A DNA stretch of 37,499 bases from Ruminococcus sp. (GTDB lineage Bacteria; Bacillota; Clostridia; Oscillospirales; Ruminococcaceae): the NCBI GenBank assembly GCA_014799735.1, contig JAAVHL010000010.1:1-37499 (forward strand), given 5' to 3'. Position numbers and translations under genes: made by a program. Positions 2,712 to 32,216 of this stretch are shown here, piece after piece (the first letter of the stretch is position 1; every line of letters starts with the position of its first letter). The notes beneath the pieces are model-generated. The model worked only from the letters and a program-made list of their open reading frames with translations, was not told the DNA's origin and did no database searches.

Positions 2712-2795
2712 CAAACAATATGTATGGACGGAGCATAAGTCCGTCCTATGCAAAAACAATTTAAAAATAATGTCGATAATTGTCGATTAAAAACG

Positions 2796-2833
2796 GTGTG
2801 CCTTTTTAGTTCTGCAAAAGGCACACTGTTTTT
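2796..2833. terminator. Bidirectional intrinsic terminator between convergent genes
   Basis: GTGTGCCTTTT, a 10-nt loop, then AAAAGGCACAC. T-runs follow the stem on both strands (TGTTTTTC on plus, CGTTTTTAAT on minus). Confidence 0.6.
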
Positions 2834-2834
2834 C

Positions 2835-12852: not shown

Positions 12853-12866
12853 TGTTCAAACTCCTT

Positions 12867-17296
<4,430 letters not shown>

Positions 17297-17323
17297 GGCT
17301 TCCTCCCGAAAATTATTTTTAAC

Positions 17324-17353
17324 ATTATAACATTTATTGACAGGCAGGTCAAT
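17324..17353 (-). promoter_or_regulatory. Sigma-A-type promoter of the GH29-GH2-GH5 operon, with a palindrome over the -35
   Basis: On the minus strand, TTGACC (17347..17352) is followed by a 17-nt spacer and TGTTATAAT, with the -10 at 17324..17329. The palindrome ATTGAC-N6-GTCAAT (17336..17353) overlaps the -35. Confidence 0.55.
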
Positions 17354-17403
17354 AGGTGTTATTATCATTACATAATATTAAAGCAATACCGCACAAAAAC
17401 TGC

Positions 17404-17501: not shown

Positions 17502-17850
17502 ATGGAGTGGGAGAAAATGTTTACCGAACTGATAGAACTTGCGCTGGAAAATCTGCTGTATTTTGCGCTTCACCTTGAATCGGGGGGAGTGTTTCCGAAA
17601 CCGCTTTCCGCCGCCGAGGAGGAGGAGTGCTTCAGAAAAATGCACGAGGGTGACCGCAGCGCAAAAAACAAGCTGATAGAACACAATCTGAGGCTCGTGG
17701 CGCACATTATAAAGAAGTACTACAACGTCACCACCGATCAGGAGGATCTGATCTCCATCGGTACTATCGGGCTTATCAAGGCTGTTTCTACCTTTGATTA
17801 TTCCAAGAAAACGCGGTTTGCTACCTATGCTTCAAGGTGTATTGAAAATG
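17502..17850 (+). CDS. sigK: Sporulation sigma factor SigK, 5' segment (spoIVCB-like: pro-sequence to region 2.4), interrupted
   Basis: The segment reads ...FPKPLSAAEEEECFRKMHEGDRSAKNKLIEHNLRLVAHIIKKYYNVTTDQEDLISIGTIGLIKAVSTFDYSKKTRFATYASRCIEN. It then reads into 33 unrelated codons (IIPCWNTKL...) before the stop at 17948. Confidence 0.9.
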
Positions 17851-18010
17851 CTATTATACCATGTTGGAACACAAAGCTGCCGAATATGTTTCCTCTATTT
17901 TTTAAGGAAAGACAGATTTTTTCGGTGTTCGGAGAGCTTTTAAAATGATTGAAAACAATCTGTATATCCTTTACAAGCTTGAAAAGGCGGCTAATGTTTG
18001 GTGAAAATGG

Positions 18011-18045
18011 AAAAAGTCCTCGGTGCTGAACCGAGGACTTTTTAA
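18011..18045. terminator. Bidirectional terminator separating the truncated sigK 5' transcript from the end of the cargo operon
   Basis: AAAAAGTCCTCGG-TGCTGAA-CCGAGGACTTTTT, with T-runs after the stem on both strands. Confidence 0.65.
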
Positions 18046-18312
18046 ATATGGCAAAAATGTCTGTTTATAGCATTCCGATTTCCGTAAAGCGCTTACTATG
18101 GATAAGCACAGCAGCCGGGACATTTTTTCGGGCGCTTTCCTATTTTTCAATTAAAAATTTCAATGCAGAAAAATCGTTTTGTATACTTGCATAATTTTAA
18201 TTTTTACAATACGATTGATTATGAAAAACGAGATGAATTCGTTGCCGTGCAAATCAGCAGGCGCACAAGTGAATGTCTCAGCTTTCGTTTTACGTCCGCG
18301 TTTTTGTAAATC

Positions 18313-19227
18313 CTACCGCATTTGAGTTGAAAAGCTATTAATTATATTTTCGATGCCGTCCTTAAATTCCATGAGAGGCTCCCACCCCGTATCGTTCCGA
18401 AGCGCCGAAATATCAGCGCACAAAAACATGACCTGCTTCTCTCCGTATGGGATCGCGCCAAGTCCAACCCTGCCTTCGGGAGCAGCAACGCTGCGTATAT
18501 CCTCGATATATTCCGAAAGAGGTCTTGCTTTACCGCTGCCAAGGACATAAACCATGCCGTCCTTTCCTTTTTCCCCCAGCAAAGCAAATGCTTCCGCGGC
18601 GTCTCCGCTGTACAGATAATCCCAATTTTGCTCGCCCTTTGTAAATTGGGGGATTTCTCCGTTTTTAAGCTTCTTCACCGCTGACATGACCATAGTATCA
18701 TCGCCGTCGTTCGGACCGTAAACGCTAAGTATCCTTACCCAGATATGACGAAGCCCCAGCTGGTGAGCAAGGTCACGCGTCATCTGTCCTGCACAAAGCT
18801 TTGCATAGCCGTAACCGTTTTCGGGAAAAGCGGGCGTATCGGGCTTGAGTATACCCTCAACCCTTCCGTATTCCGCCTGTGAACCCGCTCCGATAAACAC
18901 CTTGCAGCCTAACCTCTTTGCCGCGGAAACAGCGTCGAGAGCATACTCCACATTTTTGTTCTGCAGGTACATATCGTTTCTTGCCGAACCGAAAGTCCCA
19001 CCCCACGCCAAATGATAGAAAACGTCATATTCACCGTCGGTTTTAAAATTATGCAGGTCTGCAAGAGAGCAGTACATGACTTCAACAAACGGTGATTTGG
19101 GAATTCGGCTGTTTCTTGTAGAATCCTCCCTTGTCAGCACAAGCACCCGTATTTCTTTTGAGATAAAATTATTTATAAGAGCCGTGCCTATTGCCCCCGT
19201 AGCTCCCGTAATTACAGCACTTTTCAT
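18313..19227 (-). CDS. NAD(P)-dependent SDR epimerase/reductase (CDP-paratose/abequose synthase-like or YerF-like 4-ketoreductase)
   Basis: It has the GATGAIG Rossmann motif and YGYAK (YxxxK). It is 304 aa, has a GAGGTAATAT RBS, and is the last gene of the operon. Confidence 0.75.
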   Translation of the reverse strand: MKSAVITGATGAIGTALINNFISKEIRVLVLTREDSTRNSRIPKSPFVEVMYCSLADLHNFKTDGEYDVFYHLAWGGTFGSARNDMYLQNKNVEYALDAVSAAKRLGCKVFIGAGSQAEYGRVEGILKPDTPAFPENGYGYAKLCAGQMTRDLAHQLGLRHIWVRILSVYGPNDGDDTMVMSAVKKLKNGEIPQFTKGEQNWDYLYSGDAAEAFALLGEKGKDGMVYVLGSGKARPLSEYIEDIRSVAAPEGRVGLGAIPYGEKQVMFLCADISALRNDTGWEPLMEFKDGIENIINSFSTQMR

Positions 19228-19230
19228 ATA

Positions 19231-21027
19231 TTACCTCAAATATTTTATACTTTCAAATTCTTCCCTCGGCAGGAACGGCGCCATATCGTCAAGGGACGGC
19301 GAAACTATTCTTCCGTCAGGCAGTATCTTCGAGGAAGATTTCGGCGCAAAATTCTGCTTCGGATCGACAATCACCTCGCATAAGCAGGGCTCGTTCCCGC
19401 TTAAAGCTTCGCTTATAATTTCGGAGCAGTCCGTTTCGCTGTCTGTCCGCATATACTTTATCCCGAACGCCTCCGCAAGCTTTCCGAAATCGGGGAAGCC
19501 CACGCCGCTGTCCCTGTCAATTCCCACAAAGGGCGGCTTGAAAAGATTGGTCTGGGTTTGTCTTATGGAATGATAACCGTTGTTGTTTATAAGAAAAAGC
19601 TTGATATTAAGCCTGTTGTGTGCTATTGCGGCAAGCTCTTGAACGTTCATCATCAGACTTCCGTCACCGTCAACGCAGATCGTCCTGCCTCCGCATACAG
19701 CCGCTCCCACCGCCGCGGGCAGGGCATAGCCCATTGCCGCACAGCCCGAATTGGCGTACATACGCTGTCCTTGCTTTATCTTTCCGCACTGATAGGTTAT
19801 AACGCTTGCGCTGCCGTTGCCGCAGACTATCTTGTCTTTCGTATCCAAATGTTCAAACAATTTCTCCATAAACACATATGGGTTAAGCAAGCCATTGCCG
19901 CCGTTATAGTAGCTTTCCTCCGCCGCAGGGTATTTTTCAACAAGTTCCCTGCACCACTTGCGCCACGGCTCATGCTTCGGCGAGGGTGTGTACGGTCTTT
20001 CGGCCAGCCTTGTCAGCAAGTCCTTAACGTCCGCGTTTACGGGCATATCCGCCTTTATCGTCGGCTTAGCAAGCTCGTTAGGGTCGATATCGACTATTAT
20101 TTTGTACGCGTTTTTTGCAAAATCGAAATGATTGTATCCGATCATGCGGATATTCAGACGGCAGCCGAGACTGATAAGCAGGTCGCAGTTCTGTACCGCA
20201 AAATTACCCGCTCTTGTGCCGACCGTTCCCGCCATGCCCGCAAAATACGGACTTTCATAGGCTATTGTATCGTTTGCGTTCCAAGCGACCGAAACAGGTA
20301 TTTTCAGCTTCTCAATGACTTTCAGGAACTCCTCCTCCGCGCCGCCGAGACGTATTCCCGTGCCTGCCAGAATAAGGGGAGCCTTTGCCTTTTGTATCTT
20401 TTCCAGAATACCGTCCGCAAGCTCGTCCGTGATCTTGGGAAGCTCCCAGAACATCTCCGCATTGGGGTCAAAGTGGATAAGCTCGTCGGTGTCTATGACC
20501 GCACCCTGAACGTCAAGGGGAATATCTATCCACACGGGACCCTTTCTGCCGTTCATTGCAAGATACAGCGCCTTTTCAAGGTGATAAGCCGTCTCTTTGG
20601 GATTTGTCAGCATTACTGCATACTTTGTCATATTCGAGACCGAGTTGATTATGTCGAACTCCTGGTCGCCAAGCTGTCTCAAATGAAGCTGGGGACAAGC
20701 CGACATGGTGGTCTCGCGCTTGACCTGACCCGAAATAACAAACATAGGAATTGAGTCCAGCCAGCCGCCCATAACTCCTGTTATGGCATTGGTTCCCCCC
20801 GGACCGCTCGTTACGCACACGGCCGCGATCTTTCCCGTCAGGCGAGCGTAGCTCTCCGCGGCGATAGCACTCGCCTGCTCGTGATGATTAAAAAAGCACT
20901 TTATCCCGCCGCAGTGTCCTATAGCATCGTTAAGATGCATAGCCCCGCCGCCTGTTATCATAAAGCAATCGGTAATGCCGTTTTTAACAAAAAATTCCGC
21001 AATATAATCCGCCGCTCTTATCTTCAT
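19231..21027 (-). CDS. Thiamine-diphosphate-dependent enzyme, acetolactate synthase large-subunit-like (YerE-like candidate)
   Basis: The protein begins MKIRAADYIAEFFVKNGITDCFMITGGGAMHLNDAI, contains TSGPGGTNAITGVMGGWLDSIPMFVISGQV, and has a C-terminal GDGS...NN ThDP motif (VDGDGSLMMNVQELA...INNNGY). The ATG at 21027 follows AAAGGA by 9 nt. The track start at 21051 is a TTG. Confidence 0.8.
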   Translation of the reverse strand: MKIRAADYIAEFFVKNGITDCFMITGGGAMHLNDAIGHCGGIKCFFNHHEQASAIAAESYARLTGKIAAVCVTSGPGGTNAITGVMGGWLDSIPMFVISGQVKRETTMSACPQLHLRQLGDQEFDIINSVSNMTKYAVMLTNPKETAYHLEKALYLAMNGRKGPVWIDIPLDVQGAVIDTDELIHFDPNAEMFWELPKITDELADGILEKIQKAKAPLILAGTGIRLGGAEEEFLKVIEKLKIPVSVAWNANDTIAYESPYFAGMAGTVGTRAGNFAVQNCDLLISLGCRLNIRMIGYNHFDFAKNAYKIIVDIDPNELAKPTIKADMPVNADVKDLLTRLAERPYTPSPKHEPWRKWCRELVEKYPAAEESYYNGGNGLLNPYVFMEKLFEHLDTKDKIVCGNGSASVITYQCGKIKQGQRMYANSGCAAMGYALPAAVGAAVCGGRTICVDGDGSLMMNVQELAAIAHNRLNIKLFLINNNGYHSIRQTQTNLFKPPFVGIDRDSGVGFPDFGKLAEAFGIKYMRTDSETDCSEIISEALSGNEPCLCEVIVDPKQNFAPKSSSKILPDGRIVSPSLDDMAPFLPREEFESIKYLR

Positions 21028-21047
21028 ACGAAGCAGTCCTTTCATGA

Positions 21048-22658
21048 TCAAATATCAAAAATACTTTCCGTAACAAACGTTATATCCCTGCAGTTAACAG
21101 CGTGCCGCCTGAAATCCGCAAAAATATCCTTTATCTCCTCGTTGAGCTCGTCCCACTTGTTGTCGGGATTAAGCGTTGGCATAAATGGATCGGCATAGCT
21201 TTCATTGTACTTTGTCTTGAAACCGTCAAACCCCGCAACAGCCGCCTTTTTTACTCCGAGCATATCCAGCATTCTGAAGCAGCATACCGCAGCGTTGTCA
21301 AAATGCTTCCAACCGCGCTTTACCACCTTGTTGAAGCTGATAATTATTTCGTCCTCATCGGGAACGCTCTTAACGGTGGAAAGGAGAATTTTTCTGAATT
21401 TCCCGAAAGCCTCTCCCTTGGCATTTTTGGCGTATTCGTACCTTGCCGCGTTTGTAAAAAGAACATAATCGTAATCATACCCGTCAAGTAAAGCGTTTAC
21501 GCCGATGACCGCAGGGGCGCGCTCCGATATATACGCAAGTACTTTCTCCCGCTCGTCCAGCGACGACTTTCCCGGCGCCACAAGCAAAGCTTCACGTCCC
21601 GAAAAATATTCTGCAAGTTTTTTTACAGCCTCGGCGTCGTCCGCATAAAAGCTTTGATTTTCAAAATATTTTTTCTCCAGAAGATCGTAGTCGTATTTTT
21701 TTCTGTCCGCAGGATCAAGCGACTCAATAATATTGCGCATATCCTTTGCCTTTGTCCTGTGATTATCGAGAAGATACGCAATATTATTAACATGACAGCC
21801 GTACATTCCCGCGATAAAATAAGGCGTTGAATATCCCCAGCTGTAGTTTTCACCGAAGTACTCCATATAAATATCGATAGCGTCCATGACCGCGTCCATA
21901 TCGTAGCCGCACCCGCATTTCCTGTTAAGAAAGCTTACCGCAAGCTCCGTGGGGGTATTGCCCGCTCCCCTGCCCATTCCGCAAAGGCTTGCGTCAATAA
22001 TGATGTCCCTGCCGCTGTCACCGAGCATATTTACAAAATTCATCGTCAGCGCAAAGGAAAGCTGCTGATTGTTGTGGGAATGAAAGCCCAGACTTATATC
22101 CTTATCCGTGTGCTTGTGAAGTATTTCCGTTATCCTCTCCAAGTCCTCGGGGTACATAGCTCCGAACGTGTCCACTATCGACAAGCCAACGGGCTTTGCT
22201 TTGTTTACCGCCTCGGCAAGACGCTTTAGGTCGTCGTCGGAATAATCCATTGTATTTGCTGCCTGAAAATAAACCCTGTAGCCCTTTTCCTTTATTTTTA
22301 AGCCAACCTCAATGCCCTCCCTGTACTTGCCGCAGGGGAACACGACCCTTACCGCGTCAACGGATTTCCCGTCGCATTGGGGTAAAAGCGACAGGTCGTA
22401 CCTGTCCCAGTCGATCATTACCGTATAGGTCAGTCCGCCGTCCTTTTTTATAAGGTACTGCTCCAGATCCTGCGGGACATGATAAAACGATGTTCCGGCC
22501 TTATGGGGACTGTTTTTCAGCCAGCCGCACTCGATTATATCTGTTCCCGCTTTCTGTAACTTTTCAATAATACCCTTTATGGAGTGTTCGCCGAACTCGC
22601 TTCCCGTGATGTATGCGCCGTCGCGCAGCGTACAATCCAAAAGCTTGATATTTCCCAT
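21048..22658 (-). CDS. DRE-TIM metallolyase (HMGL/aldolase-like) N-terminal domain fused to an uncharacterised C-terminal domain of about 200 aa
   Basis: It contains LLDCTLRDGAY, GFHSHNN (HxH metal site) and GMGRGAGNTPTE. I do not recognise the C-terminal half (LLVAPGKSSLDEREK...). Confidence 0.7.
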   Translation of the reverse strand: MGNIKLLDCTLRDGAYITGSEFGEHSIKGIIEKLQKAGTDIIECGWLKNSPHKAGTSFYHVPQDLEQYLIKKDGGLTYTVMIDWDRYDLSLLPQCDGKSVDAVRVVFPCGKYREGIEVGLKIKEKGYRVYFQAANTMDYSDDDLKRLAEAVNKAKPVGLSIVDTFGAMYPEDLERITEILHKHTDKDISLGFHSHNNQQLSFALTMNFVNMLGDSGRDIIIDASLCGMGRGAGNTPTELAVSFLNRKCGCGYDMDAVMDAIDIYMEYFGENYSWGYSTPYFIAGMYGCHVNNIAYLLDNHRTKAKDMRNIIESLDPADRKKYDYDLLEKKYFENQSFYADDAEAVKKLAEYFSGREALLVAPGKSSLDEREKVLAYISERAPAVIGVNALLDGYDYDYVLFTNAARYEYAKNAKGEAFGKFRKILLSTVKSVPDEDEIIISFNKVVKRGWKHFDNAAVCCFRMLDMLGVKKAAVAGFDGFKTKYNESYADPFMPTLNPDNKWDELNEEIKDIFADFRRHAVNCRDITFVTESIFDI

Positions 22659-22659
22659 T

Positions 22660-24009
22660 TTATTTTACGCTCCTTAAAGCATCCGTTACAACCTCAGCCG
22701 TATAGTCAAGCATTTCCGGACTCATTCCCGGGTAAACGCCTATCCAGAACGTGTTGTTCATAACAAAATCGGTGTTCGCCAGTCCTCCCGATATACGATA
22801 ACCGTCCGTATCCCGCATTTCGTCAAAGCATGGGTGTTTTGTCAGATTGCCGCTGAAAAGCAGCCTTGTCTGAATATTGTGTTCCTCAATATATTTTGTA
22901 ACAGCGTTCCTGCTTATGCCGCTTTCGGGTCTTAGCGAGATAACAAATCCGAACCATGACGGGATACTGTTTTCGGCTGCTTCGGGAAGAATTATCTTAT
23001 CCTCCTCAGGCTTCAGAGCCGAATACAGCTTTTCCCAGTTGCTCCTGCGCTTCACAATAAAATCGGGAAGCTTTTTAAGCTGCTCGCAGCCTATTGCAGC
23101 CTGCATATCCGTCGCTTTAAGATTGTAGCCGAAATGGCTGTACACATATTTATGATCGTAGCCTTTTGGAAGCTCGCCGAATTGTCCCTCAAACCTGTGT
23201 CCGCAGAAATTGTCTTTGCCCGACGGACAAACGCAGTCCCTGCCCCAGTCCCTGAAAGAAAGTATCAGCCTGCTCAAAAGCGGATCGTTCGTATAAACGC
23301 AGCCGCCCTCTCCCATGGTGATGTGGTGCGGCGGATAAAAGCTGCTTGTGCCGATGTCGCCCCATGTTCCCGTGTATTTTTCGATCCCGTCACAGGCGTA
23401 CTTAGAGCCCAAAGCGTCGCAGTTATCCTCGAGAAGCCATAAATTGTTCCTGTCGCAGAATTCCCTTACGGCTTTCAGGTCAAAGGGATTTCCCAGCGTG
23501 TGCGCGATCATTACCGCTTTTGTTTTTTCTGACAAAGCCGCTTCAAGCTTTGTAACATCAATATTGTACTGCGGAACCGTCACGTCTATAAAAACAGGAA
23601 CAGCCCCGTACTGAATTATGGGAGTAACAGTTGTGGGAAAACCGCAGGCCGCCGTAATGACCTCGTCCCCGCGCTTTATGCGCCGCTCGCCAAGCTCCTT
23701 AGCAGTAAGCGCAGAAAAAGCGATCAGATTTGCCGACGAGCCGCTGTTCACAAGGTGAGTGTGCTTTACGCCGAGGAAGTCTGCAAAATCCTTTTCAAAC
23801 CGTTCGGCAAACCGTCCCGTAGTCAGCCAGAAATCAAGCATAGCGTCCGCAAGAGCGCACATCTCCTTTTCGTCATAGACCCTTGCCGCATAAGGTATTC
23901 TGTCTCCATTTGAAAAACCGCCGCTGTCCTTTTTGAAATCATGATAATATTCCGAAACGGCTTTTTTTATAAATTCTCTTGCTTCCGCCTCGGTTTCCCA
24001 ATTCTTCAT
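22660..24009 (-). CDS. rfbH: CDP-4-keto-6-deoxy-D-glucose 3-dehydratase (E1; RfbH/DdhC/AscC family)
   Basis: It contains DFWLTTGRFAERFEKDFADFLG, NSGSSANL, ACGFPTTVTPIIQ and FYPPHHITMGEGG (His in place of the usual PLP Lys), plus the Cys cluster GRDCVCPSGKDNFCGHRF. The ATG at 24009 overlaps the rfbG stop (ATGA). The upstream extension in the track is an artefact. Confidence 0.88.
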   Translation of the reverse strand: MKNWETEAEAREFIKKAVSEYYHDFKKDSGGFSNGDRIPYAARVYDEKEMCALADAMLDFWLTTGRFAERFEKDFADFLGVKHTHLVNSGSSANLIAFSALTAKELGERRIKRGDEVITAACGFPTTVTPIIQYGAVPVFIDVTVPQYNIDVTKLEAALSEKTKAVMIAHTLGNPFDLKAVREFCDRNNLWLLEDNCDALGSKYACDGIEKYTGTWGDIGTSSFYPPHHITMGEGGCVYTNDPLLSRLILSFRDWGRDCVCPSGKDNFCGHRFEGQFGELPKGYDHKYVYSHFGYNLKATDMQAAIGCEQLKKLPDFIVKRRSNWEKLYSALKPEEDKIILPEAAENSIPSWFGFVISLRPESGISRNAVTKYIEEHNIQTRLLFSGNLTKHPCFDEMRDTDGYRISGGLANTDFVMNNTFWIGVYPGMSPEMLDYTAEVVTDALRSVK

Positions 24010-25070
24010 TTTGACATATCCTCCAAAAATTCCTCGATCTCCCTGTCCATTTCCTTTGAAACGTCCCCGCCGGAAAGCTGAACCTTTGTAAAACGGCATA
24101 CTTCCTCCATAGCCTTTTCAACGTGCCATACAGGCTTCCACCCGAAAACCGATTTAAGTCTCGAACAGTCCAGCTTCAGGAAATTTGCCTCTTTTGGAGC
24201 ATTGCTTTCCGAACGGTTTTCCCACGCCGCGCCCTCGCCCCAGCATTTGCAGAACAGTTCCGTAAGCTCCGCCGTTGTGATACAGTCTCCCTCATCGGGA
24301 CCCACATTATAGCAGCCCGCGGTTTCGGGACGTTCATACTGTCCCTGCACGATAATGAGGTACGCCGTCAAGGCTTCAAGAACGTGCTGATAGGGACGTA
24401 CCGAGTGAGGATTTCTCACCGCAATTTTTCTGCCGTCGGTCACAGCCCTTATGCAGTCGGGAACTATTCTGTCCGCGGAAAAATCTCCGCCGCCGATAAC
24501 GTTTCCCGCTCTTGCGGTTGAGACGCCGACGCTGTTCAAATAACAATTTTTATAAGTACCTGTCACAAGCTCCGAACAGGACTTTGAATTTGAGTACGGG
24601 TCAAAGCCGTTCAGCTCCTCGTTTTCTCTGTAGCCCCATTCCCACTCCCTGTTTAAGTATACCTTGTCCGTGGTAACGTTAAGAAAAGACCTTACCGAAT
24701 TGCTTTCCCTAATACATTCAAGAATATTGACGGTGCCCATAACGTTTGTTTCGTAGGTATAAGCAGGATTTTTATAGCTTTCCTTGACAATAGGCTGAGC
24801 CGCAAGATGAAAGACCATCTCGGGCCGTGCTTTTTCAAAAGCGGCTTTGAGGCTTTCCAAGTCCCTTATGTCTCCTGTTACGGAAACCATATTTCCTGCA
24901 ATGTCCGAAATATCAAACAGCGAGGGCTTCGCGGGAGCAAGAGCATAGCCTGTCACGTCAGCGCCCGCTTTTAAAAGAAATCTGCAAAGCCAGCTTCCCT
25001 TAAAGCCTGTGTGACCCGTTATAAAAACACGTTTGCCTTTATAAAAGGACAAATCAAAACTGTTTATCAC
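24006..25070 (-). CDS. rfbG: CDP-glucose 4,6-dehydratase
   Basis: The protein reads (V)INSFDLSFYKGKRVFITGHTGFKGSWL...YSNSK...RAGNVIGGGD...RPYQHVLE. The GTG at 25070 lies 6 nt after GGGAGGA and 2 nt after the rfbF stop. The track starts at 25094/25085 overlap rfbF. Confidence 0.88.
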   Translation of the reverse strand: MINSFDLSFYKGKRVFITGHTGFKGSWLCRFLLKAGADVTGYALAPAKPSLFDISDIAGNMVSVTGDIRDLESLKAAFEKARPEMVFHLAAQPIVKESYKNPAYTYETNVMGTVNILECIRESNSVRSFLNVTTDKVYLNREWEWGYRENEELNGFDPYSNSKSCSELVTGTYKNCYLNSVGVSTARAGNVIGGGDFSADRIVPDCIRAVTDGRKIAVRNPHSVRPYQHVLEALTAYLIIVQGQYERPETAGCYNVGPDEGDCITTAELTELFCKCWGEGAAWENRSESNAPKEANFLKLDCSRLKSVFGWKPVWHVEKAMEEVCRFTKVQLSGGDVSKEMDREIEEFLEDMSK

Positions 25071-25072
25071 CG

Positions 25073-25855
25073 TCAGTCCTCCCATTTTTTCCAAGGCGCC
25101 TGTCCAAGCGTCAGAAGCTTTTCAAGCATATCCATTTCCCGTTTCGTATCCATGCACTGCCAGAAGCCCTTGTGCATATACGACATAAGCTGTCCCTCTT
25201 CCGCAAGCTTTTCAAGGGGTTCTTTTTCAAATACTGTCTCGTCACCCTCGATATAATCAAAAATCTCGGGATTTAAAACCATGTACCCTGCATTTATAAG
25301 CGCGCCGTCGCTGAGGTTTTTCTCACGGAAGGAGCGCACCGCGTTGTCTCCGCCGACGTCAAGCACACCCTTTTGCTGCTCAAGCGTGACCGCCGTAAGG
25401 GTAGCGATTTTTCCGTGGGAAGCGTGAAACTCCACAAGCTTTTTTATATCAACGTCGCACACTCCGTCGCCGTATGTCATCATAAACGGCTCGTCCCCGA
25501 TATATCTGCGCACCCGCTTTATTCTTCCGCCTGTCATGGTTTTAAGGCCTGTGTCAACTATAGTGACCTTCCACGGCTCGCAGTGCTGACTGTGTATAGT
25601 GGTCTGTTCCGTGCCGCTTGTGAAATCAAACGTAACGTCGCTGTTATGGAGGAAATAATCCGCAAACCATTCCTTTATCATATGCTGTTTATAGCCCGCA
25701 CAAATGATAAATTCGTTAATGCCGTAATGGTAATATTCCTTCATAATATGCCATAAAATAGGCTTTCCGCCGATTTCTATCATAGGCTTCGGCTTTAAGC
25801 TCGACTCCTCGGAAATTCGGGTTCCGTATCCTCCCGCCAGCAATACAGCTTTCAT
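25073..25855 (-). CDS. rfbF: Glucose-1-phosphate cytidylyltransferase
   Basis: The protein begins MKAVLLAGGYGTRISEESSLKPKPMIEIGGKPILWHIMKEYYHYGINEFIICAGYK and contains MTGGRIKRV and GFWQCMDT. It aligns with Salmonella RfbF, as I remember that sequence, along the whole length. Confidence 0.92.
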   Translation of the reverse strand: MKAVLLAGGYGTRISEESSLKPKPMIEIGGKPILWHIMKEYYHYGINEFIICAGYKQHMIKEWFADYFLHNSDVTFDFTSGTEQTTIHSQHCEPWKVTIVDTGLKTMTGGRIKRVRRYIGDEPFMMTYGDGVCDVDIKKLVEFHASHGKIATLTAVTLEQQKGVLDVGGDNAVRSFREKNLSDGALINAGYMVLNPEIFDYIEGDETVFEKEPLEKLAEEGQLMSYMHKGFWQCMDTKREMDMLEKLLTLGQAPWKKWED

Positions 25856-25878
25856 ATTATAAAATCATTCCCTTGAAA

Positions 25879-27459
25879 TTATTTTTTGCATATGTATTTA
25901 TAGAAATCCGATTCAGTATAATTTCTTGCAATAAAATTATTTTTTATCTCTATCTCGTCCATGGATTCCGTTTCCTCAAGATCGGCCACTGTTTCAATTT
26001 TTAAAACTGTTCTGCTGATCTCGCGGTAAAATTCCACCAAAGGAGTTACAGCTCCCAGGATAAAAATAAACGACGACACAAACAGCAGCGTTTTTTTGCG
26101 TATAAATTCATCAAGACCCTTTATTTCGCCCTTTGCCGGAACACTGTCAGTAAATGCTTTTATAAATTCAACCGCAAGATAAATGATCGGCGGTATCGAC
26201 GCTCTCATCGTAAAATCTCCGTCCATTCCCAAACGGAACAGCGGTAAAAGCAGCAGCATGATAATTGTCCCGATAAATTCGGGAGCCGCTTTTTTCTTTT
26301 TTATTTTCAAGTAAATCAGAATGATCGCAGTATAAAATCCGACCTCGACCAAAATAAAAAAAATATACAACAAAAGCTTTGAAATAATTCCCGAAACATT
26401 CCCCTCGGCAAACGGCTCCAGCCAGATGTCATTCACACGAAAGCCCACGTTGGCTTTTCCCGTTTCATAATAAGCATCGTTTGAAGCGATCGCGTTTGAA
26501 AAATAATACAAATAATACACAGGAAGCACAGAAACGCACGCCAGAATATTCTGGAATGAAAGTACGTTTTTCACCGCCTCCGAAAGCCTGCCGCCGCGTA
26601 TCATTCCAACGCTTATAACAGCCGCTTTTATCACGCACATCAAAACTATCCCGATAAACGGCAGCGGTCCGAACGGAAGCGCAAGCAGTCCGAGAAAAGC
26701 GAAATTCTTAACGCTGCGCTCGTTTATTATGCAAAAAGTAACAAGCCATATTGCTATTGTTTGATTATACACCCAGAACAAGCAGGTGGTAAACGAGCTG
26801 TACTGAATAATATAGTATGCCCACCATTCCAGGTGATTGTCGAATGTATTCGCTGTCACAGCGTTTCCCACCAGATCAAGCCCGCTGAAAAAAATAAACA
26901 GAAAAACTGTCAGCATAATATGCGGTTTTTTCTTTGAAAACGTTAGAATGACCACCAGCAGCAGCGAAAGAAACACTCCTATGCTGCTCCATATCAGCAA
27001 AAAGACATTTCCCGCCGCATAGCCTGCCGATACCGAACCCGAAACCGTGTAAAAAATTTTGCCCACCAGCGCGGGAGGCATCCAATGCGCAATATAATAT
27101 GACAGCATTGAACCGTCAGAATACACCACAGGCCAAGGCATTTTTATCAAATCGCGAAAGATCGCATTCCTTATCGTATTATCGCTTGACTGATGGATAA
27201 ACCCTCCGTGTCCCGCAAGAAAGCACCATGCCAAAGAGACCGCGCCGATAATTATCAGTGCTTTTTTTGACACAACAGCATACGTTTTTTCGCCGTCACG
27301 CTTTCGGGAGCTTTTCCAAAAGAAAAAGCAGGCCGCCGCAAGCAGCGCGGAAAATACTGCCGCCCATAGAGCCGAAAGCCATCCGAAAAAGAAAATAAAG
27401 ATCGGGACAGCCACATATATTACCGCGGCGGATCTGATACGGTTATATGAAATTTTCAT
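25879..27459 (-). CDS. Polytopic membrane protein (about 12-14 TM), candidate GT-C-type / GtrC-like glycosyltransferase or polymerase
   Basis: A very hydrophobic 526-aa ORF preceded by a GGGGAGAA RBS. It lies between the GT2 gene and rfbF. The function is inferred from position only. Confidence 0.5.
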   Translation of the reverse strand: MKISYNRIRSAAVIYVAVPIFIFFFGWLSALWAAVFSALLAAACFFFWKSSRKRDGEKTYAVVSKKALIIIGAVSLAWCFLAGHGGFIHQSSDNTIRNAIFRDLIKMPWPVVYSDGSMLSYYIAHWMPPALVGKIFYTVSGSVSAGYAAGNVFLLIWSSIGVFLSLLLVVILTFSKKKPHIMLTVFLFIFFSGLDLVGNAVTANTFDNHLEWWAYYIIQYSSFTTCLFWVYNQTIAIWLVTFCIINERSVKNFAFLGLLALPFGPLPFIGIVLMCVIKAAVISVGMIRGGRLSEAVKNVLSFQNILACVSVLPVYYLYYFSNAIASNDAYYETGKANVGFRVNDIWLEPFAEGNVSGIISKLLLYIFFILVEVGFYTAIILIYLKIKKKKAAPEFIGTIIMLLLLPLFRLGMDGDFTMRASIPPIIYLAVEFIKAFTDSVPAKGEIKGLDEFIRKKTLLFVSSFIFILGAVTPLVEFYREISRTVLKIETVADLEETESMDEIEIKNNFIARNYTESDFYKYICKK

Positions 27460-27479
27460 ATCGTTCTCCCCAAAAAATT

Positions 27480-28442
27480 TTATTCTTTCGACTCATCGCT
27501 TTCATCACAGTCAAAATTTATACGTTTTTCTTCTATAACAAGCGGTCTGTTCATTATCCTCTGGTTAATGCTCATTATGTATTCTCCCAGCAATCCAATA
27601 AAAATAAGCTGTATTCCGCCGAGCACGAAAACTCCGATAAGCGTCGGCGCATTGCCCAGAGCAAAGCTGTCCCAGTTTATAAGCTTTAATATAAGGTACG
27701 CAAAGGCAATGACCATGCTTATAATTGAAATAATAAAGCCCGCAATGGTGCATACCCTCATTCCAACCTTTGTGTACGCCGTAAAGCTCAGCATTGCCGC
27801 GTCGTAAAGAGTATACCAGTTATTGCTGGTTTTGCCCGCACGCCTTTTCTGCTGTTCGTATGTAATTTCCTTGCGCTTAAAGCCAAGCTCCGCAACGATA
27901 CCCCTCAAAAACGGCGTAGGGTCGTTAAGTCTGCGCAGGACGTCCACAAAATCCTTGTCATAAAGACCCGTTCCCGTAAAATGCTCTATCTGTTCAACGT
28001 CGGATATTTTTTTGATGACCTTATAGTAGCACGTTCTGCAAAACCGCATTACCGGATTTTCGCGGCTCTGCGCCTTTATCGGACAAACTATTTTATATCC
28101 CTGTTCCCACTCGTGAACAAGCCTGGGGATAAGCTCCACAGGATCCTGAAAGTCGGCGCACATTGATATCGTGCAGTCTCCCGTAGTCTGGAGGATACCG
28201 TAATAAGGCGAATTGAACTGCCCGAAATTGCGGGCGTTGAATATCGCTTTTATCCTCTTGTTTTTTTCACAAAGTCCGATAAGCTTCTGACGGGTACTGT
28301 CCGTCGAATTGTTGTCGATAAAAACTATCTCGTAATCGTACCCGCTCAGGAACTCGTTAAACTGACCTATGATAGCCTCGCTGAGAGGGACAACGTTCTC
28401 CTCTTCATTATAACACGGGATCAGGACAGATATTTTTTTCAC
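27480..28442 (-). CDS. GT2 polyprenyl-phosphate glycosyltransferase (GtrB/CsbB/ArnC-like)
   Basis: The protein begins MKKISVLIPCYNEEENV, contains FIDNNSTD and ADFQDP (DxD-type), and has two C-terminal TM helices. It is 320 aa. Confidence 0.85.
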   Translation of the reverse strand: MKKISVLIPCYNEEENVVPLSEAIIGQFNEFLSGYDYEIVFIDNNSTDSTRQKLIGLCEKNKRIKAIFNARNFGQFNSPYYGILQTTGDCTISMCADFQDPVELIPRLVHEWEQGYKIVCPIKAQSRENPVMRFCRTCYYKVIKKISDVEQIEHFTGTGLYDKDFVDVLRRLNDPTPFLRGIVAELGFKRKEITYEQQKRRAGKTSNNWYTLYDAAMLSFTAYTKVGMRVCTIAGFIISIISMVIAFAYLILKLINWDSFALGNAPTLIGVFVLGGIQLIFIGLLGEYIMSINQRIMNRPLVIEEKRINFDCDESDESKE

Positions 28443-28484
28443 AGAAGAACCCCCTATTTAAGCTCACGTAATATCCTACTTTTA

Positions 28485-28907
28485 TTATTTCATCGCCCAG
28501 TTTTTATTTATAAAGTAATTGAGCGGAACTGTTATAAGCAAGCCGAGCAGCGGCGCTATGAACTCAGAAATTTTGATCACATCTACAAATATGTAAAGGA
28601 TCGCCGTACCAATAAACAGATTGCTTCCGTATGCCGCAAAGGTTTTGAAAAGCGTTTTGGCTTTTTCATCGGTTTTCTTAAAGACAAATCTGCTGTTCCA
28701 GAAATATGAATTAAGCACGCTGACTACAAAGCCGACAATGTTTCCTATGATATAAAGCTTTGGGTCGAAAACGATAAAGATGTAATATATTCCCAGCGAG
28801 ATGACCGTATTGGAAACCCCGACAATACAAAATTTTATAAAACGTATCAGCTCTTGCCACTGCTTATCGGAAATATTAAGCCGTTCCTTTATTTTTTCAA
28901 GAAGCAT
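28485..28907 (-). CDS. GtrA-family small membrane protein (lipid-linked sugar flippase candidate)
   Basis: From the ATG at 28907 it is 140 aa. It contains LIRFIKFCIVGVSNTVISLGIYYIF and has four TM segments. The track start at 28982 is a TTG and adds 25 unlikely residues. Confidence 0.75.
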   Translation of the reverse strand: MLLEKIKERLNISDKQWQELIRFIKFCIVGVSNTVISLGIYYIFIVFDPKLYIIGNIVGFVVSVLNSYFWNSRFVFKKTDEKAKTLFKTFAAYGSNLFIGTAILYIFVDVIKISEFIAPLLGLLITVPLNYFINKNWAMK

Positions 28908-29004
28908 AAATATCTTTTTCAAATAATCACCTGCGTACACAGTCACACAAACGCTTAATACAGCGTTTGCAGGAATTAACAAAAATATGTCTATACATAC
29001 TTAT

Positions 29005-29032
29005 ATTATACACATTTTTTGCCGTTTGTCAA
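29005..29032 (-). promoter_or_regulatory. Sigma-A-type promoter of the nine-gene cargo operon
   Basis: On the minus strand, TTGACA (29027..29032), a 16-nt spacer, then TATAAT (29005..29010). It is followed by a structured leader of about 90 nt (CAAACGC-N8-GCGTTTG at 28949..28970). Confidence 0.6.
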
Positions 29033-29240
29033 TCGTATTGGGCGAATTGCCGCTGACGCAAAGTAAAAGCTATACAAGTTGATTAGAGCAAACGTGTTGG
29101 CGGCAAACCTGTTAATGTATGGTGTCCCCTTAAATTACGAGCCGAATAATCCTGCGTTACAGTTGTATATTATTTATATGAACAGCGGCGAATAATACGC
29201 TGTCAAATCAAATACTATTGATATTAAGAGGAGGCTTCAC

Positions 29241-29408
29241 ATGAAAATTATAGTACATCTTCCATCGGATAAAAATAATAAGGATGAGCTTGAAAAAAGA
29301 GTTGCGGAAGTACACGGCGACAGTGCGGTCGCATACATAAAAAAACAGCCATGGACTAAAGAACAAAAGCTATTGATAATAAAATCAATTGCAGGAAAAT
29401 GCTCATAA
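29241..29408 (+). CDS. Small 55-aa protein, unknown function (candidate recombination directionality factor or regulator)
   Basis: My own translation is MKIIVHLPSDKNNKDELEKRVAEVHGDSAVAYIKKQPWTKEQKLLIIKSIAGKCS. A strong AAGAGGAGG RBS lies 6 nt upstream and an intrinsic terminator follows immediately. It is below the 60-aa track cutoff. Confidence 0.55.
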   Translation: MKIIVHLPSDKNNKDELEKRVAEVHGDSAVAYIKKQPWTKEQKLLIIKSIAGKCS

Positions 29409-29415
29409 AATAATC

Positions 29416-29451
29416 GAGAGACGGTGTCAATACCGTCTCTCTTTATTTTTT
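29416..29451 (+). terminator. Intrinsic terminator after the 55-aa ORF
   Basis: GAGAGACGGT-GTCAAT-ACCGTCTCTC followed by TTTATTTTTT. Confidence 0.7.
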
Positions 29452-29778
29452 ATTGTTCAGATGAACATCGTTCAGATACAGCGATATTTTTTTGTATATT
29501 TCAACTGCATCGAGAGAGCCATCAAAAATTTCCTTATATTCGGGATTTTTTAAAAATTCAAATAAATATAGCTTTCGTAATTTTTCTTGCCAAACTGCTC
29601 TATGATACAGGAGTATCTGCATAACAGATTTGACTATATTTATTCAAGGGAAAGCAATATCCACAAGTTTGACCGTAATAAATTTATACGTCAATCTGTT
29701 GGCGAGGAGCCGGAGGATTCCGAATATAAAGAATTGACAACTGTACGAATTCCATTTAACAACAAGGAGGAGTAGTGT

Positions 29779-29913
29779 ATGTTAGTTAAAGTATCGCCAT
29801 TGTCAGACGAAAGCGTTCATTTTTGGAACTATGAAAGATTTAAAGAGCATCACAAGGCAAAAGTAAAGTCATGGGACACTATGATATTGACGTTGAAATT
29901 GATCAAGCTTTGA
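29779..29913 (+). CDS. Small 44-aa ORF, in frame with ORF 29587..29775 across a single TAG (possible gene remnant)
   Basis: AAGGAGGAG lies 6 nt before the ATG. The translation is MLVKVSPLSDESVHFWNYERFKEHHKAKVKSWDTMILTLKLIKL. It is in the same frame as the upstream 62-aa ORF, separated by TAG-TGT. Confidence 0.3.
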   Translation: MLVKVSPLSDESVHFWNYERFKEHHKAKVKSWDTMILTLKLIKL

Positions 29914-30020
29914 TAAACTCATTAGGGCTGAAGTGTGAGCATTTACTTTCAAAACAGTAATATATTGCTATATTCTGTTTCCATATGTTATTTAAAAAAA
30001 TCCAAATTTTACTTTTCATC

Positions 30021-30071
30021 TTTACATTTTAATTCCATAGTGATATAATAAATGATAGTATATATCACTAT
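30021..30071 (+). promoter_or_regulatory. Sigma-A-type extended -10 promoter of the recombinase gene, embedded in an 11-bp perfect inverted repeat
   Basis: TTTACA (30021..30026), a 17-nt spacer, then TGATATAAT with TATAAT at 30044..30049. The inverted repeat is ATAGTGATATA (30037..30047) and TATATCACTAT (30061..30071). Confidence 0.5.
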
Positions 30072-30088
30072 AGAAGGGGATTTTAAAT

Positions 30089-31789
30089 ATGCCAAAAGAT
30101 GACGTCCGCACAATTGCCATATACTCCCGCAAATCCAAATTCACAGGCAAAGGCGAAAGCATAGAAAACCAAATCGAGCTGTGCAGACAATACATATCCT
30201 CGCACTACAGCCAAGAAGAAGCAACCGCAGCAATCGTCTACGAGGACGAAGGCTTCTCCGGCGGAAACACTGACAGACCGCAGTTCCAGCAGATGATGTC
30301 CGACGCGAGAGCGAAAAAAATTTCTGCGGTGGTATGCTACCGTCTTGACCGTGTGAGCAGAAATATCAGCGACTTTTCGGGACTTATCCAAGAGCTTGAA
30401 CGTCTGGGCATTTCCTTTATCTCTATCCGCGAGGACTTCGACACCTGCTCTCCCATGGGACGGGCAATGATGTACATAGCTTCGGTTTTCTCCCAGCTTG
30501 AACGTGAAACCATTGCCGAGCGCATACGGGACAATATGCACGAGCTTGCCAAAACTGGTCGCTGGCTTGGCGGCACAACTCCCACGGGGTACGCTTCGGA
30601 AAGCGTTTCTCATGTTACCGTGGACGGAAAATCAAAAAAAGCCTGCAAGCTTTCGCTTATCGAAAAGGAAGCGGATATTGTCAGGCTTATCTTTTCAAAA
30701 TTCCTTGAAACCAATTCCCTCACACAGACAGATACTTTTTTACTGCAAAATCATATCACGACCAAAAACGGACGGAATTTTACACGGTTTGCAATAAAAA
30801 ATATTCTTACAAATCCTGTGTATATGATTGCCGACGAAGCCGCCTACAGATATCTTTCCGAAAGCGGTGCTGAACTTTTTTCTGAAAGATCGGACTTTGA
30901 CGGCATATGCGGAATAATGGCGTACAACCGCACCGAGCAGAAGCACGGCGAAGCCCACAAGATACGTCCCGAAGACGAATGGATAGTCGCCGTGGGAAAG
31001 CACCCCGGAATAATCAGCGGTTCTGACTGGATAAAGGCGCAGACCTATCTTGAACAAAACCGCTCAAAAAGCTTCCGTAAAACCCGCAGCAACACCGCTT
31101 TGCTGTCGGGGATACTTCTCTGCGGTAACTGCGGTGACTATATGCGTCCCAAGCTTACCAAGCGCACAAACAAGGACGGTGAGCTTGTCTACACATACCT
31201 CTGCAGCACAAAGGAAAGAAGCCATTCCGAACGCTGCGCTATTCCCAACATCAGCGGAAATCTTCTTGACCGTATCGTCTGTACCGAAATCAAAAAGCTT
31301 TCCGAGGACAGTTCCGCTTTTGTAAAGTCTGTTGAAAAGGCAAAGAAAGATATTTTATCGGACAAAGGCGACTTTTCGGAGAACATTGAAGAGTTGAAAA
31401 AAAGCTTTTCCGAAAACGAAAAAGCAATTGAAAATCTTACAAAAAGCTTGTCGGAGAATTCGGAAAGCTCTGCGGCGGGATACATTATAAAAGAAATGGA
31501 ACGTCTGCACAAGAAAAACGACGGACTGAAATCCCAGATCGACGAGCTTGAAAATATCAGAAAGCGGCAGATCATAAACGGCAGAGAGTTCGACATACTC
31601 AGAGATATGCTTTCAAGCTTTGCGGGCACGGTGGACATTATGTCCGCGGAGCAGAAAAGAGCAGCGATACGCGCCTGTGTAAGGAAGATAGTCTGGGACG
31701 GCGAAAACGTTCATATATATCTTTACGGCTCGGACGATGACGATACAAAGAATACTCTTGAAATTCCGCTGAGTGAGTATAGCAAATGA
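30089..31789 (+). CDS. spoIVCA: Large serine recombinase (SpoIVCA-like site-specific recombinase)
   Basis: The N-terminal resolvase domain is IAIYSRKSKFTGKGESIENQ...VVCYRLDRVSRN, with the catalytic Ser in YSRKS. It also has a recombinase domain, a zinc-ribbon-like LCGNCGDYM...YLCSTK, and a C-terminal coiled coil. It is 566 aa and abuts the right junction. Confidence 0.9.
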   Translation: MPKDDVRTIAIYSRKSKFTGKGESIENQIELCRQYISSHYSQEEATAAIVYEDEGFSGGNTDRPQFQQMMSDARAKKISAVVCYRLDRVSRNISDFSGLIQELERLGISFISIREDFDTCSPMGRAMMYIASVFSQLERETIAERIRDNMHELAKTGRWLGGTTPTGYASESVSHVTVDGKSKKACKLSLIEKEADIVRLIFSKFLETNSLTQTDTFLLQNHITTKNGRNFTRFAIKNILTNPVYMIADEAAYRYLSESGAELFSERSDFDGICGIMAYNRTEQKHGEAHKIRPEDEWIVAVGKHPGIISGSDWIKAQTYLEQNRSKSFRKTRSNTALLSGILLCGNCGDYMRPKLTKRTNKDGELVYTYLCSTKERSHSERCAIPNISGNLLDRIVCTEIKKLSEDSSAFVKSVEKAKKDILSDKGDFSENIEELKKSFSENEKAIENLTKSLSENSESSAAGYIIKEMERLHKKNDGLKSQIDELENIRKRQIINGREFDILRDMLSSFAGTVDIMSAEQKRAAIRACVRKIVWDGENVHIYLYGSDDDDTKNTLEIPLSEYSK

Positions 31790-32216
31790 AATCCTAATGC
31801 ACTTCCGTTCACTGAAAAAGTCCGCGGGAGACATATACTTCGACGAGCCCATCGACACCGACAAGGAGGGCAACCAGCTTACCCTGATAGACATTATTGC
31901 CGAGGACGACGGCATACTGGACAAAATTGACCTGAGCATAAAATCGGAGCAGCTTTACCGCTTTATAGGAGAATGTCTTGACGAGCGGGAGATCACCGTA
32001 ATAAAACGCCGCTACGGACTTTACGGCTGTATGCCTCAGACCCAGCGGGAGGTTGCTGATTCGCTGGGGATATCCCGTTCTTATGTTTCGAGAATAGAGA
32101 AAAAAGCTTTGCAGACGCTTAAAAAGAAATACGACCGTACTTCGATCTTCGGGTCTTCGGGTTCGGCGGGTCAGACAGGTCAGGCAAAGGAGGGAGGAAA
32201 GAGTTCCGAAAAATAA
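31784..32216 (+). CDS. sigK: Sporulation sigma factor SigK, 3' segment (spoIIIC-like: regions 3 to 4.2)
   Basis: From the core onward it reads (N)EILMHFRSLKKSAGDIYFDEPIDTDKEGNQLTLIDII...REVADSLGISRSYVSRIEKKALQTLKK. The four codons upstream of the core (VSIA) belong to the element and the recombinase 3' end. Confidence 0.9.

Follow-up and report, generated by a model that had tools for sequence, protein, structure and literature searches.

A six-gene CDP-3,6-dideoxyhexose module with a predicted aldolase/YerE-like branch-building step in a sigK-interrupting element of Ruminococcus

Introduction

Long-branched 3,6-dideoxy sugars have so far been described only from a few Gram-negative lipopolysaccharides and from mycobacterial lipooligosaccharides. 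The gene clusters for erwiniose, caryophyllose and gastriose combine genes for CDP-4-keto-3,6-dideoxyglucose with a pyruvate aldolase, a YerE-like thiamine diphosphate (ThDP) enzyme and a reductase (Steitz 2022, PMC9306805). In the scheme published for them, the aldolase supplies a 4-hydroxy-2-oxoacid as donor; its decarboxylation and its addition to the sugar's C-4 ketone are both carried out by the ThDP enzyme, and the reductase completes the branch (PMC9306805). The erwiniose carboligase ErwE rejects pyruvate, and its cluster aldolase ErwI is a BphI-like enzyme of the DRE-TIM type (PMC9306805); a review backs the same roles for clustered aldolase, ThDP enzyme and reductase genes (PMC12247030). 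Here we analyze a 37,499-nucleotide stretch of a Ruminococcus sp. contig (JAAVHL010000010.1, positions 1 to 37,499; the window in what follows), in which six tightly packed open reading frames (ORFs) on the minus strand, 25855..18313, occur in the order RfbF, RfbG, RfbH, aldolase-like protein, ThDP enzyme and short-chain dehydrogenase/reductase (SDR). By enzyme class this gene set matches the published scheme one-for-one.

The erwiniose cluster of Pectobacterium atrosepticum (ErwI aldolase, ErwJ dehydrogenase, ErwE, ErwF) resembles the window in having a DRE-TIM-type aldolase, a YerE-like carboligase and an NAD(P)H reductase beside CDP-deoxy-keto-sugar genes. It differs in that the window aldolase belongs to another, uncharacterised DRE-TIM subfamily, with Tyr for His and a C-terminal domain of ~200 aa, and in that the window host is a Gram-positive anaerobe with Gtr-type attachment genes rather than an O-antigen glycosyltransferase. 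With the yersiniose A genes of Yersinia pseudotuberculosis (DdhA-D, YerE, YerF) the window shares RfbF/G/H as homologues of DdhA/B/C, a YerE-like ThDP enzyme and a reductase, whereas it lacks DdhD/E3 and possesses an aldolase gene, which implies a non-pyruvate donor and a longer branch. In Mycobacterium marinum and M. gastri, the clusters for caryophyllose and gastriose (MMAR_2331 aldolase, MMAR_2332, MygE/MygI/MygF) likewise join an aldolase, a ThDP enzyme and a reductase and place a long hydroxylated branch on a 3,6-dideoxyhexose, but their aldolase belongs to the HpcH/citrate-lyase type rather than to the DRE-TIM enzymes, and the product is found in lipooligosaccharides.

Our comparison makes it quite likely that the six genes direct the synthesis of a 3,6-dideoxyhexose whose C-4 branch is installed by the ThDP enzyme. 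With somewhat less assurance, we favor the reading that they form a module for a CDP-3,6-dideoxyhexose with a C-4 branch longer than C2, built through the aldolase/YerE-like enzyme/reductase scheme. A branch longer than the C2 unit of yersiniose would be expected because, in that scheme, the cluster aldolase makes a 4-hydroxy-2-oxoacid donor. The kind of system is already known; what is new here is a non-orthologous two-domain aldolase partner, the lack of both an E3 reductase and an aldehyde-supplying enzyme, the Gtr-type attachment genes in a Gram-positive anaerobe and the carriage of the genes in an element that interrupts sigK.

The six-gene operon and its CDP-sugar enzymes

The six genes and the two domains of the aldolase-like protein lie as follows.

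25073..25855, minus strand: rfbF/ddhA, glucose-1-phosphate cytidylyltransferase, 260 aa (full-length match to the TIGR02623 equivalog, 381 bits with a cutoff of 300; PF00483)
24006..25094, minus strand: rfbG/ddhB, CDP-glucose 4,6-dehydratase (TIGR02622 equivalog, 416 bits with a cutoff of 278)
22660..24009, minus strand, ORF to 24099: rfbH/ddhC, E1-type CDP-4-keto-6-deoxyglucose 3-dehydrase, pyridoxamine phosphate and 2Fe-2S type (NF011936, 705 bits with a cutoff of 423)
21048..22658, minus strand: aldolase-like protein, 536 aa (PF00682 on the N-terminal ~260 residues only; residues 335-536 without a Pfam family)
21843..22658, minus strand: N-terminal DRE-TIM (HMGL-like) domain of the aldolase-like protein, ~residues 1-272 (PF00682)
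21051..21656, minus strand: C-terminal alpha/beta domain of the aldolase-like protein, residues 335-536 (AlphaFold2 model with pLDDT 89.7; invariant AGFDGFxxxYNESYADP)
19231..21027, minus strand, ORF to a TTG at 21051: YerE-like ThDP-dependent carboligase, 598 aa from Met9 (PF02776, PF00205, PF02775)
18313..19227, minus strand: extended SDR, 304 aa, predicted side-chain ketoreductase in the role of YerF/ErwF (PF01370; TGxxGxxG and YxxxK motifs)

With the most plausible starts, the spacing of the six genes runs from a 2-nt overlap up to 20 nt. RfbG probably begins at the GTG at 25070 or the ATG at 25085; its orthologue in locus L005, one of the related loci described below, is called at 354 aa with a GTG start. 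The RfbH ORF is 30 codons longer than its homologous part and, because homology starts only at Met31, the true start is probably 24009. A metagenome contig of identical sequence, whose genes were called independently, has the same start for the ThDP enzyme, Met9 (598 aa).

Homology above curated thresholds sets the predicted identities of the first three enzymes, strongly so for the RfbF and RfbG steps. RfbH scores 504 bits against the E1 of Yersinia (3bcx) and 201 bits against ColD. It carries the catalytic-His motif FYPPHHITMGEGG at ORF residues 254-266, and its C289-x-C291-x7-C299 cysteines, together with an upstream Cys in EDNCDALGS, align with the 2Fe-2S ligands of E1. A sequence-only reading of this DNA had named rfbF, rfbG and rfbH, had pointed to a His-for-Lys signature and a Cys cluster in the E1 protein and had described six closely spaced genes ending in an SDR. 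All of this stands: the three assignments lie above the curated NCBIfam equivalog cutoffs, both E1 features align with the Yersinia enzyme, the gene set is found as listed above and its last gene is an SDR by PF01370.

In the pathway that we propose, RfbF would convert glucose-1-phosphate to CDP-glucose and RfbG would convert CDP-glucose to CDP-4-keto-6-deoxyglucose. The E1-type RfbH would then remove the 3-OH, its 2Fe-2S cluster being reduced by a housekeeping low-potential ferredoxin or flavodoxin, to give CDP-4-keto-3,6-dideoxyglucose. From its fold, its adjacency and the published scheme, the aldolase-like protein would join pyruvate to an aldehyde from general metabolism to yield a 4-hydroxy-2-oxoacid, which the YerE-like enzyme, by homology to JanthE and PpYerE, would decarboxylate, placing the acyl anion onto the C-4 ketone. 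The SDR would reduce the side-chain carbonyl, by analogy with YerF and ErwF. The steps after RfbF/G/H are inferred from family membership, gene linkage and published analogues.

Conservation of the gene set was followed with a pattern scan for the aldolase family in one genome per GTDB species, which gave 286 stretches; the best 80 loci were examined. Many of these loci are on incomplete contigs, and the locus counts are lower bounds. A homologue of the ThDP enzyme lies within 10 kb of the aldolase gene in 66 of the 80 loci and directly downstream of it in 35 of these, and the SDR is conserved together with the aldolase-ThDP pair in 45-49 of the 80. RfbF is found in 44 and RfbH in 40 of the 80, and the full six-gene set is present in 26, often in the order RfbF-RfbG-RfbH-Ald-ThDP-SDR and including loci of Treponema and Riflebacteria.

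A YerE-like ThDP enzyme

The ThDP enzyme is a three-domain protein of the decarboxylase type with the catalytic Glu; its alignment shows the motif HHEQ and the canonical GDGS...NNNGY. Searched against all PDB sequences, it matches JanthE (8rph) best, at 407 bits, followed by 5ahk at 262 bits, which was deposited as 'acetolactate synthase II' and which we take to be the PpYerE structure, and by acetohydroxyacid synthase (AHAS) I of E. coli at 221 bits. The alignment with 8rph, at 36% identity, runs over the whole protein and takes in a C-terminal tail that is absent from AHAS. The 8rph protein is JanthE, a characterised YerE-like enzyme (PMC12188165), and PpYerE and JanthE are the YerE-like enzymes with solved structures (PMC12247030). 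JanthE, from Janthinobacterium sp. HH01, is the closest characterised relative of the window enzyme; it differs in having an unusual CDG in its ThDP motif where the window protein has the canonical GDG.

As the sequence-only reading had itself pointed out, its proposal of a 4-C-branched 3,6-dideoxyhexose depends on whether this enzyme belongs with true acetolactate synthases (ALS). It does not appear to. The protein fails every ALS cutoff (best ALS model 334 bits with a cutoff of 738; TIGR00118 332 bits with a cutoff of 538). In a neighbor-joining (NJ) tree of 65 aldolase-associated ThDP proteins with the window protein, JanthE, PpYerE, IlvB, IlvI, Gcl and PoxB, calculated without bootstrap, the whole aldolase-associated clade joins first JanthE and next PpYerE and stays separate from AHAS and Gcl. 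Neither AHAS small-subunit nor ilv genes are present in the operon or adjoining it. We rejected a true acetolactate synthase on the curated cutoffs, the PDB ranking and the NJ tree; the grouping with JanthE and PpYerE, ahead of AHAS, is supported by these comparisons but not strongly resolved. Given a YerE-like ThDP enzyme, the 4-C-branched 3,6-dideoxyhexose is indeed the most likely product.

Electron supply to RfbH in the absence of an E3 gene

The sequence-only reading had noticed that the operon has no E3 reductase gene, and our searches bear this out. No E3-like reductase was found in the window by a phmmer search seeded with the ferredoxin-NADP reductase (FNR)/2Fe-2S proteins Hcr, PaaE and Fre of E. 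coli (E<=10, stop-to-stop ORFs >=70 aa), and Pfam scans of the large ORFs of the window gave no Fer2, FAD_binding_6 or NAD_binding_1 domain. With the same three seeds, phmmer found an E3-like gene in none of 84 related loci. A regex screen of the window and the 84 loci for the plant-type ferredoxin motif gave no candidate, and the Pfam-annotated neighborhoods of several related loci hold no FNR/2Fe-2S reductase homologue. The 84 loci contain 41 RfbH homologues, and in all 41 both the catalytic histidines and the cysteines of the Fe-S motif are conserved.

How C-3 deoxygenation could be completed without E3 had been left as an open question for this locus. Our results show that the situation is not peculiar to it, and there is a precedent in SpnQ, an E1 homologue without a dedicated E3, which is reported to work with general ferredoxin/ferredoxin-reductase or flavodoxin/flavodoxin-reductase pairs (PMC8987622). 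Like RfbH, SpnQ (of the spinosyn forosamine pathway) is an Fe-S 3-dehydrase from a cluster that lacks E3; it differs in its substrate, a TDP-2,6-dideoxy sugar, and in its host, an aerobic actinomycete, whereas RfbH of the window is a close E1 orthologue expected to act on a CDP sugar. Since strict anaerobes are rich in low-potential ferredoxins, and in view of SpnQ, we infer that housekeeping electron carriers would reduce E1 in these organisms, which is the economical reading. Separately, in locus L005, where the operon is found outside a sigK element, the product (254 aa) of a divergent gene adjoining it (2727-3491, minus strand) contains a 4Fe-4S dicluster ferredoxin domain and is a possible local electron carrier for E1.

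It had also been suggested that the aldolase-like gene takes the place of E3 in this operon. The protein belongs to the DRE-TIM metallolyases and lacks any domain for a redox cofactor, and in the published clusters aldolases make the donor. As it has no flavin or Fe-S domain, it could not feed electrons to E1, and we rejected it as a functional substitute for E3. These points bear on the first alternative to the pathway proposed above, namely a yersiniose-like product with a C2 branch from pyruvate (acetyl, then 1-hydroxyethyl), in which the aldolase-like gene would substitute or compensate for E3. The gene set does otherwise parallel ddhABC plus yerE plus yerF, and the ThDP enzyme is YerE-like, with a closest characterised relative, JanthE, that accepts pyruvate too (PMC12247030, PMC12188165). 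However, the aldolase-like protein consists of a DRE-TIM barrel and an alpha/beta domain, its pairing with the ThDP enzyme is tight and widely conserved, and ErwE, which has an aldolase partner, rejects pyruvate. We regard a C2 product as unlikely.

The aldolase-like protein and its C-terminal domain

By both sequence and fold, the best PDB matches of the aldolase domain are 3dxi, the N-domain of BVU_2661, and then the 4-hydroxy-2-oxovalerate aldolases of DmpG/BphI type. The metal ligands D13, H193 and H195 are retained, and TLRDGAY aligns with TLRDGSH of DmpG and TLRDGGY of 3dxi. The latter, from Bacteroides vulgatus, is described as the 'N-terminal domain of a putative aldolase'; it shares the TLRDG-x-Y motif with the window protein and has no assigned function, and a literature search on 3dxi/BVU_2661 returned nothing relevant. 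DmpG and BphI share the metal ligands, while their catalytic His and their acylating-dehydrogenase partner are absent in the window. Because the metal ligands are kept yet the catalytic His is replaced by Tyr, pyruvate-aldol chemistry of the aldolase-like protein is plausible but unproven.

Structure prediction gave a DRE-TIM barrel followed by a small alpha/beta domain, in keeping with the earlier description of a DRE-TIM aldolase-like protein with an unknown C-terminal domain: PF00682 covers the N-terminal part only, and a Pfam search with the C-terminal domain found no family. In a PDB profile search the best match of this domain was only SteA (E 0.064), and Foldseek with the AlphaFold2 model gave only a weak fold match, again to SteA (E 2e-3, TM-score about 0.5). 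An hhalign comparison with a Maf MptE-like protein showed no similarity. Among 1.84 billion representative proteins the domain occurs essentially only at positions ~335-535 of ~530-aa proteins. Its invariant motifs include PGKS, GVNA, RGWxHFDNA and AGFDGFxxxYNESYADP, and because of this strong conservation a ligand-binding or second catalytic role is likely.

Such a domain could mean that the aldolase-like enzyme acts on the nucleotide sugar, extending or modifying a short branch installed by the ThDP enzyme while the C-terminal domain holds the CDP moiety, or that the C-terminal domain is a kinase or nucleotide-binding domain working on the aldol product. Its near-invariant motifs and its occurrence only in fusion with this aldolase domain would fit, as would the weak SteA/MptE-like signal in fold and sequence. 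Genes for haloacid dehalogenase (HAD) phosphatases point the same way: one lies between the aldolase and ThDP genes in 17 of the 80 species loci, and also in loci L004, L091 and L092, a hint that the aldehyde or the aldol product may be phosphorylated in such variants, although the window operon has no such gene. However, the SteA match is marginal, the hhalign comparison was empty, and an order in which the aldolase acts after branching is disfavored in the one tested system by the rejection of pyruvate by ErwE. We therefore give this second alternative little weight.

Distribution and the case for a single pathway

The aldolase family is found mostly in Lachnospiraceae and Oscillospiraceae, and also in Selenomonadaceae, Bacteroidia, Treponema and other Spirochaetia, Erysipelotrichaceae and a Riflebacteria metagenome-assembled genome (MAG). 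The sequence-only reading had held that such a pathway would be unusual in a clostridial spore former. With 286 stretches, most of them from the two clostridial families, the module is widespread there and this expectation has no support at the genomic level; the operon module is not rare, and it is a modest rather than a surprising find. Literature searches for branched dideoxy sugars in Firmicutes, and for clusters of rfbH with acetolactate synthase and aldolase genes, returned no match and nothing relevant, respectively. Yersiniose itself has reportedly been found in a polysaccharide of Eubacterium saburreum.

A third alternative, in which RfbFGH and the SDR as a C-4 ketoreductase make a paratose/abequose-type sugar while the aldolase and the ThDP enzyme separately make an acyloin or keto-acid, or the latter is an acetolactate synthase, is very unlikely: the SDR does fall in the same extended-SDR superfamily as the CDP-sugar 4-reductases, and about a fifth of the long-flank loci have the aldolase-ThDP pair without RfbFGH within 10 kb, but the six genes are co-linear with gaps of 20 nt or less and keep one order across phyla, and the ThDP enzyme falls below every ALS cutoff, groups with sugar-branching enzymes and has neither an AHAS small subunit nor ilv genes nearby.

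Several observations nevertheless weigh against a long-branched product of the published type. The aldolase domain has Tyr16, which is also Tyr in 3dxi, where DmpG and BphI have the catalytic His, and with an identity of only about 20% to these enzymes its chemistry may differ. The conserved C-terminal domain has no place in the proposed scheme, and the window has no acetaldehyde dehydrogenase equivalent to ErwJ. Because JanthE also takes pyruvate, a C2 branch stays compatible with the homology of the ThDP enzyme, whose placement among the YerE-like enzymes depends on two PDB proteins and on the NJ tree without bootstrap, from which YerE, ErwE and MMAR_2332 are absent. The SDR has PDB matches of at most 54 bits and no close characterised relative. 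That a CDP-sugar is the substrate of the GtrB-like enzyme encoded upstream (see below) is an assumption, and for the clade as a whole the proposed functions rest on sequence and analogy throughout.

Variation around the aldolase-ThDP pair is of interest for the source of the aldehyde. In Acutalibacter the pair is flanked by the aldehyde-forming enzymes LuxC/LuxE, neighbors that fit an aldolase needing an aldehyde that is sometimes supplied in cis. In Acutalibacter sp. 1XD8-33 (loci L003/L011, 5000-19000), two LuxE/LuxC pairs, an AMP-ligase, a thioesterase, a split transketolase, SDRs and a radical-SAM/SPASM protein surround the pair, which suggests a far more elaborate branch, possibly derived from a fatty aldehyde.

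A different setting is seen in a gut metagenome scaffold (L091, 1-21812), in which a ThDP enzyme 73% identical to that of the window lies inside a flagellin glycosylation island. The order there is flagellin, Maf (MptE-like), glycosyltransferase, SDR, methyltransferase, an HMGL-like protein of 542 aa, HAD, ThDP enzyme, SDR, methyltransferase, RfbF/G/H-like proteins, PglD-like protein, NeuB and NeuC. The branch-building module may also decorate flagellin.

If the proposed pathway is right, gut and rumen Firmicutes would commonly display long-branched 3,6-dideoxy sugars on their surface, and such sugars are strong antigens and determinants of phage or host recognition. The clade would also hold a large reserve of YerE-like carboligases, with their partner aldolases, that has yet to be exploited for the synthesis of chiral tertiary alcohols, and the operon would be a natural system in which to test how strict anaerobes carry out C-3 deoxygenation without E3. 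As a more tentative and more speculative extension, the two-domain aldolase family could be a new branch-building enzyme that, together with a ferredoxin-driven, E3-independent E1, makes a family of chemically undescribed higher-carbon branched dideoxy sugars in gut and rumen Clostridia, Negativicutes, Bacteroidia and spirochaetes, which would be placed on cell-wall polymers and in some species on flagellin; in the window, the trait would be carried from place to place by a sigK-interrupting element, as a cassette with its own promoter. The operon usefully draws attention to surface sugars and enzymes of gut anaerobes that have yet to be described, though it would be no surprise to deoxysugar specialists.

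Upstream attachment genes

Three further genes and a promoter precede the six, making a nine-gene operon.

25879..27459, minus strand: polytopic membrane protein, 526 aa, about 10 transmembrane (TM) segments (no Pfam or NCBIfam family; adjoins the GtrA and GtrB-like genes)
27480..28442, minus strand: GtrB/ArnC/PgfS-like family 2 glycosyltransferase (GT2) for polyprenyl phosphate (PF00535; C-terminal TM pair, residues 233-290)
28485..28982, minus strand: GtrA-family small membrane protein, putative flippase for a lipid-linked sugar (PF04138, 86 bits)
29005..29032, minus strand: sigma-70-type promoter TTGACA-16-TATAAT before the nine-gene operon (12/12 consensus match)

In NCBIfam the GT2 enzyme comes closest to PgfS (176 bits) and ArnC (120 bits) without reaching either cutoff, and a GtrB-like GT2 is encoded in 30 of the 80 loci. 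GtrA, the GtrB-like GT2 and the consensus promoter make the cassette self-contained. With a GtrA protein, a GT2 whose C-terminal part holds two TM segments and a polytopic protein encoded together, the operon resembles the three-component systems of Gtr type (GtrA/GtrB/GtrC; CsbB-GtcA-YfhO; PgfS; ArnC). It differs from them in that the predicted donor is a CDP-sugar, not a UDP-sugar, and in that the 10-TM protein of the window matches no known GT-C family; this 526-aa protein is a candidate extracytoplasmic GT-C-like transferase. By analogy with these systems, the three proteins probably attach the sugar to an envelope polymer: the GtrB/ArnC-like GT2 would load it on polyprenyl phosphate, GtrA would flip the lipid-linked sugar and the 10-TM protein would transfer it to the polymer.

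The sigK element and movement of the cassette

The operon is carried in an element that splits sigK.

17851..31788, no strand assigned: sigK-interrupting (skin-like) element, ~13.9 kb, which carries the operon (Sigma70_r2/Sigma70_r4 fragments on either side)
30089..31789, plus strand: large serine recombinase, 566 aa (Resolvase/Recombinase/Zn_ribbon domains; stop codon at the right junction)

The N-terminal half of sigK lies at 17502..17850 and the C-terminal half at 31789..32216, so that the junction reads CIEN followed by EILMHFRSLKK, and an AAATG core is present at both element junctions (17846-17850 and 31784-31788). The sequence-only reading had called these genes cargo, and the word is justified because all nine lie in the sigK-interrupting element together with a serine recombinase.

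The nine genes and their promoter (window 18340..29037) recur in two Ruminococcus/Oscillospiraceae MAGs at 93% and 90.5% nucleotide identity, where they occupy L005 3620-14319 and L059 1077-11776. Homology with both stops at 29037, just upstream of the promoter. The flanks in those MAGs are unrelated: genes for a P-type ATPase and a 4Fe-4S protein lie at one end of the cassette, a WYL regulator gene and a GerA operon at the other, and neither a recombinase nor sigK lies beside it in the two MAGs. Given such unrelated flanks, the operon behaves as a portable cassette that has been moved between contexts.

Between the operon and the recombinase gene is a 1.1-kb spacer of low GC content (about 34%; window 28983-30088) with no ORF longer than 66 aa. 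It contains a strong bidirectional hairpin terminator at 29416-29441 and, at 30021-30049, a near-consensus extended -10 promoter that faces the recombinase gene. Outside the element, by the 5' half of sigK, window 11653-17368 holds a run of glycoside hydrolase (GH) genes, namely a GH5 cellulase-family gene, a GH2 beta-galactosidase-like gene for a protein of ~1000 aa and a GH29 alpha-L-fucosidase gene, which is consistent with a glycan-degrading gut or rumen organism.

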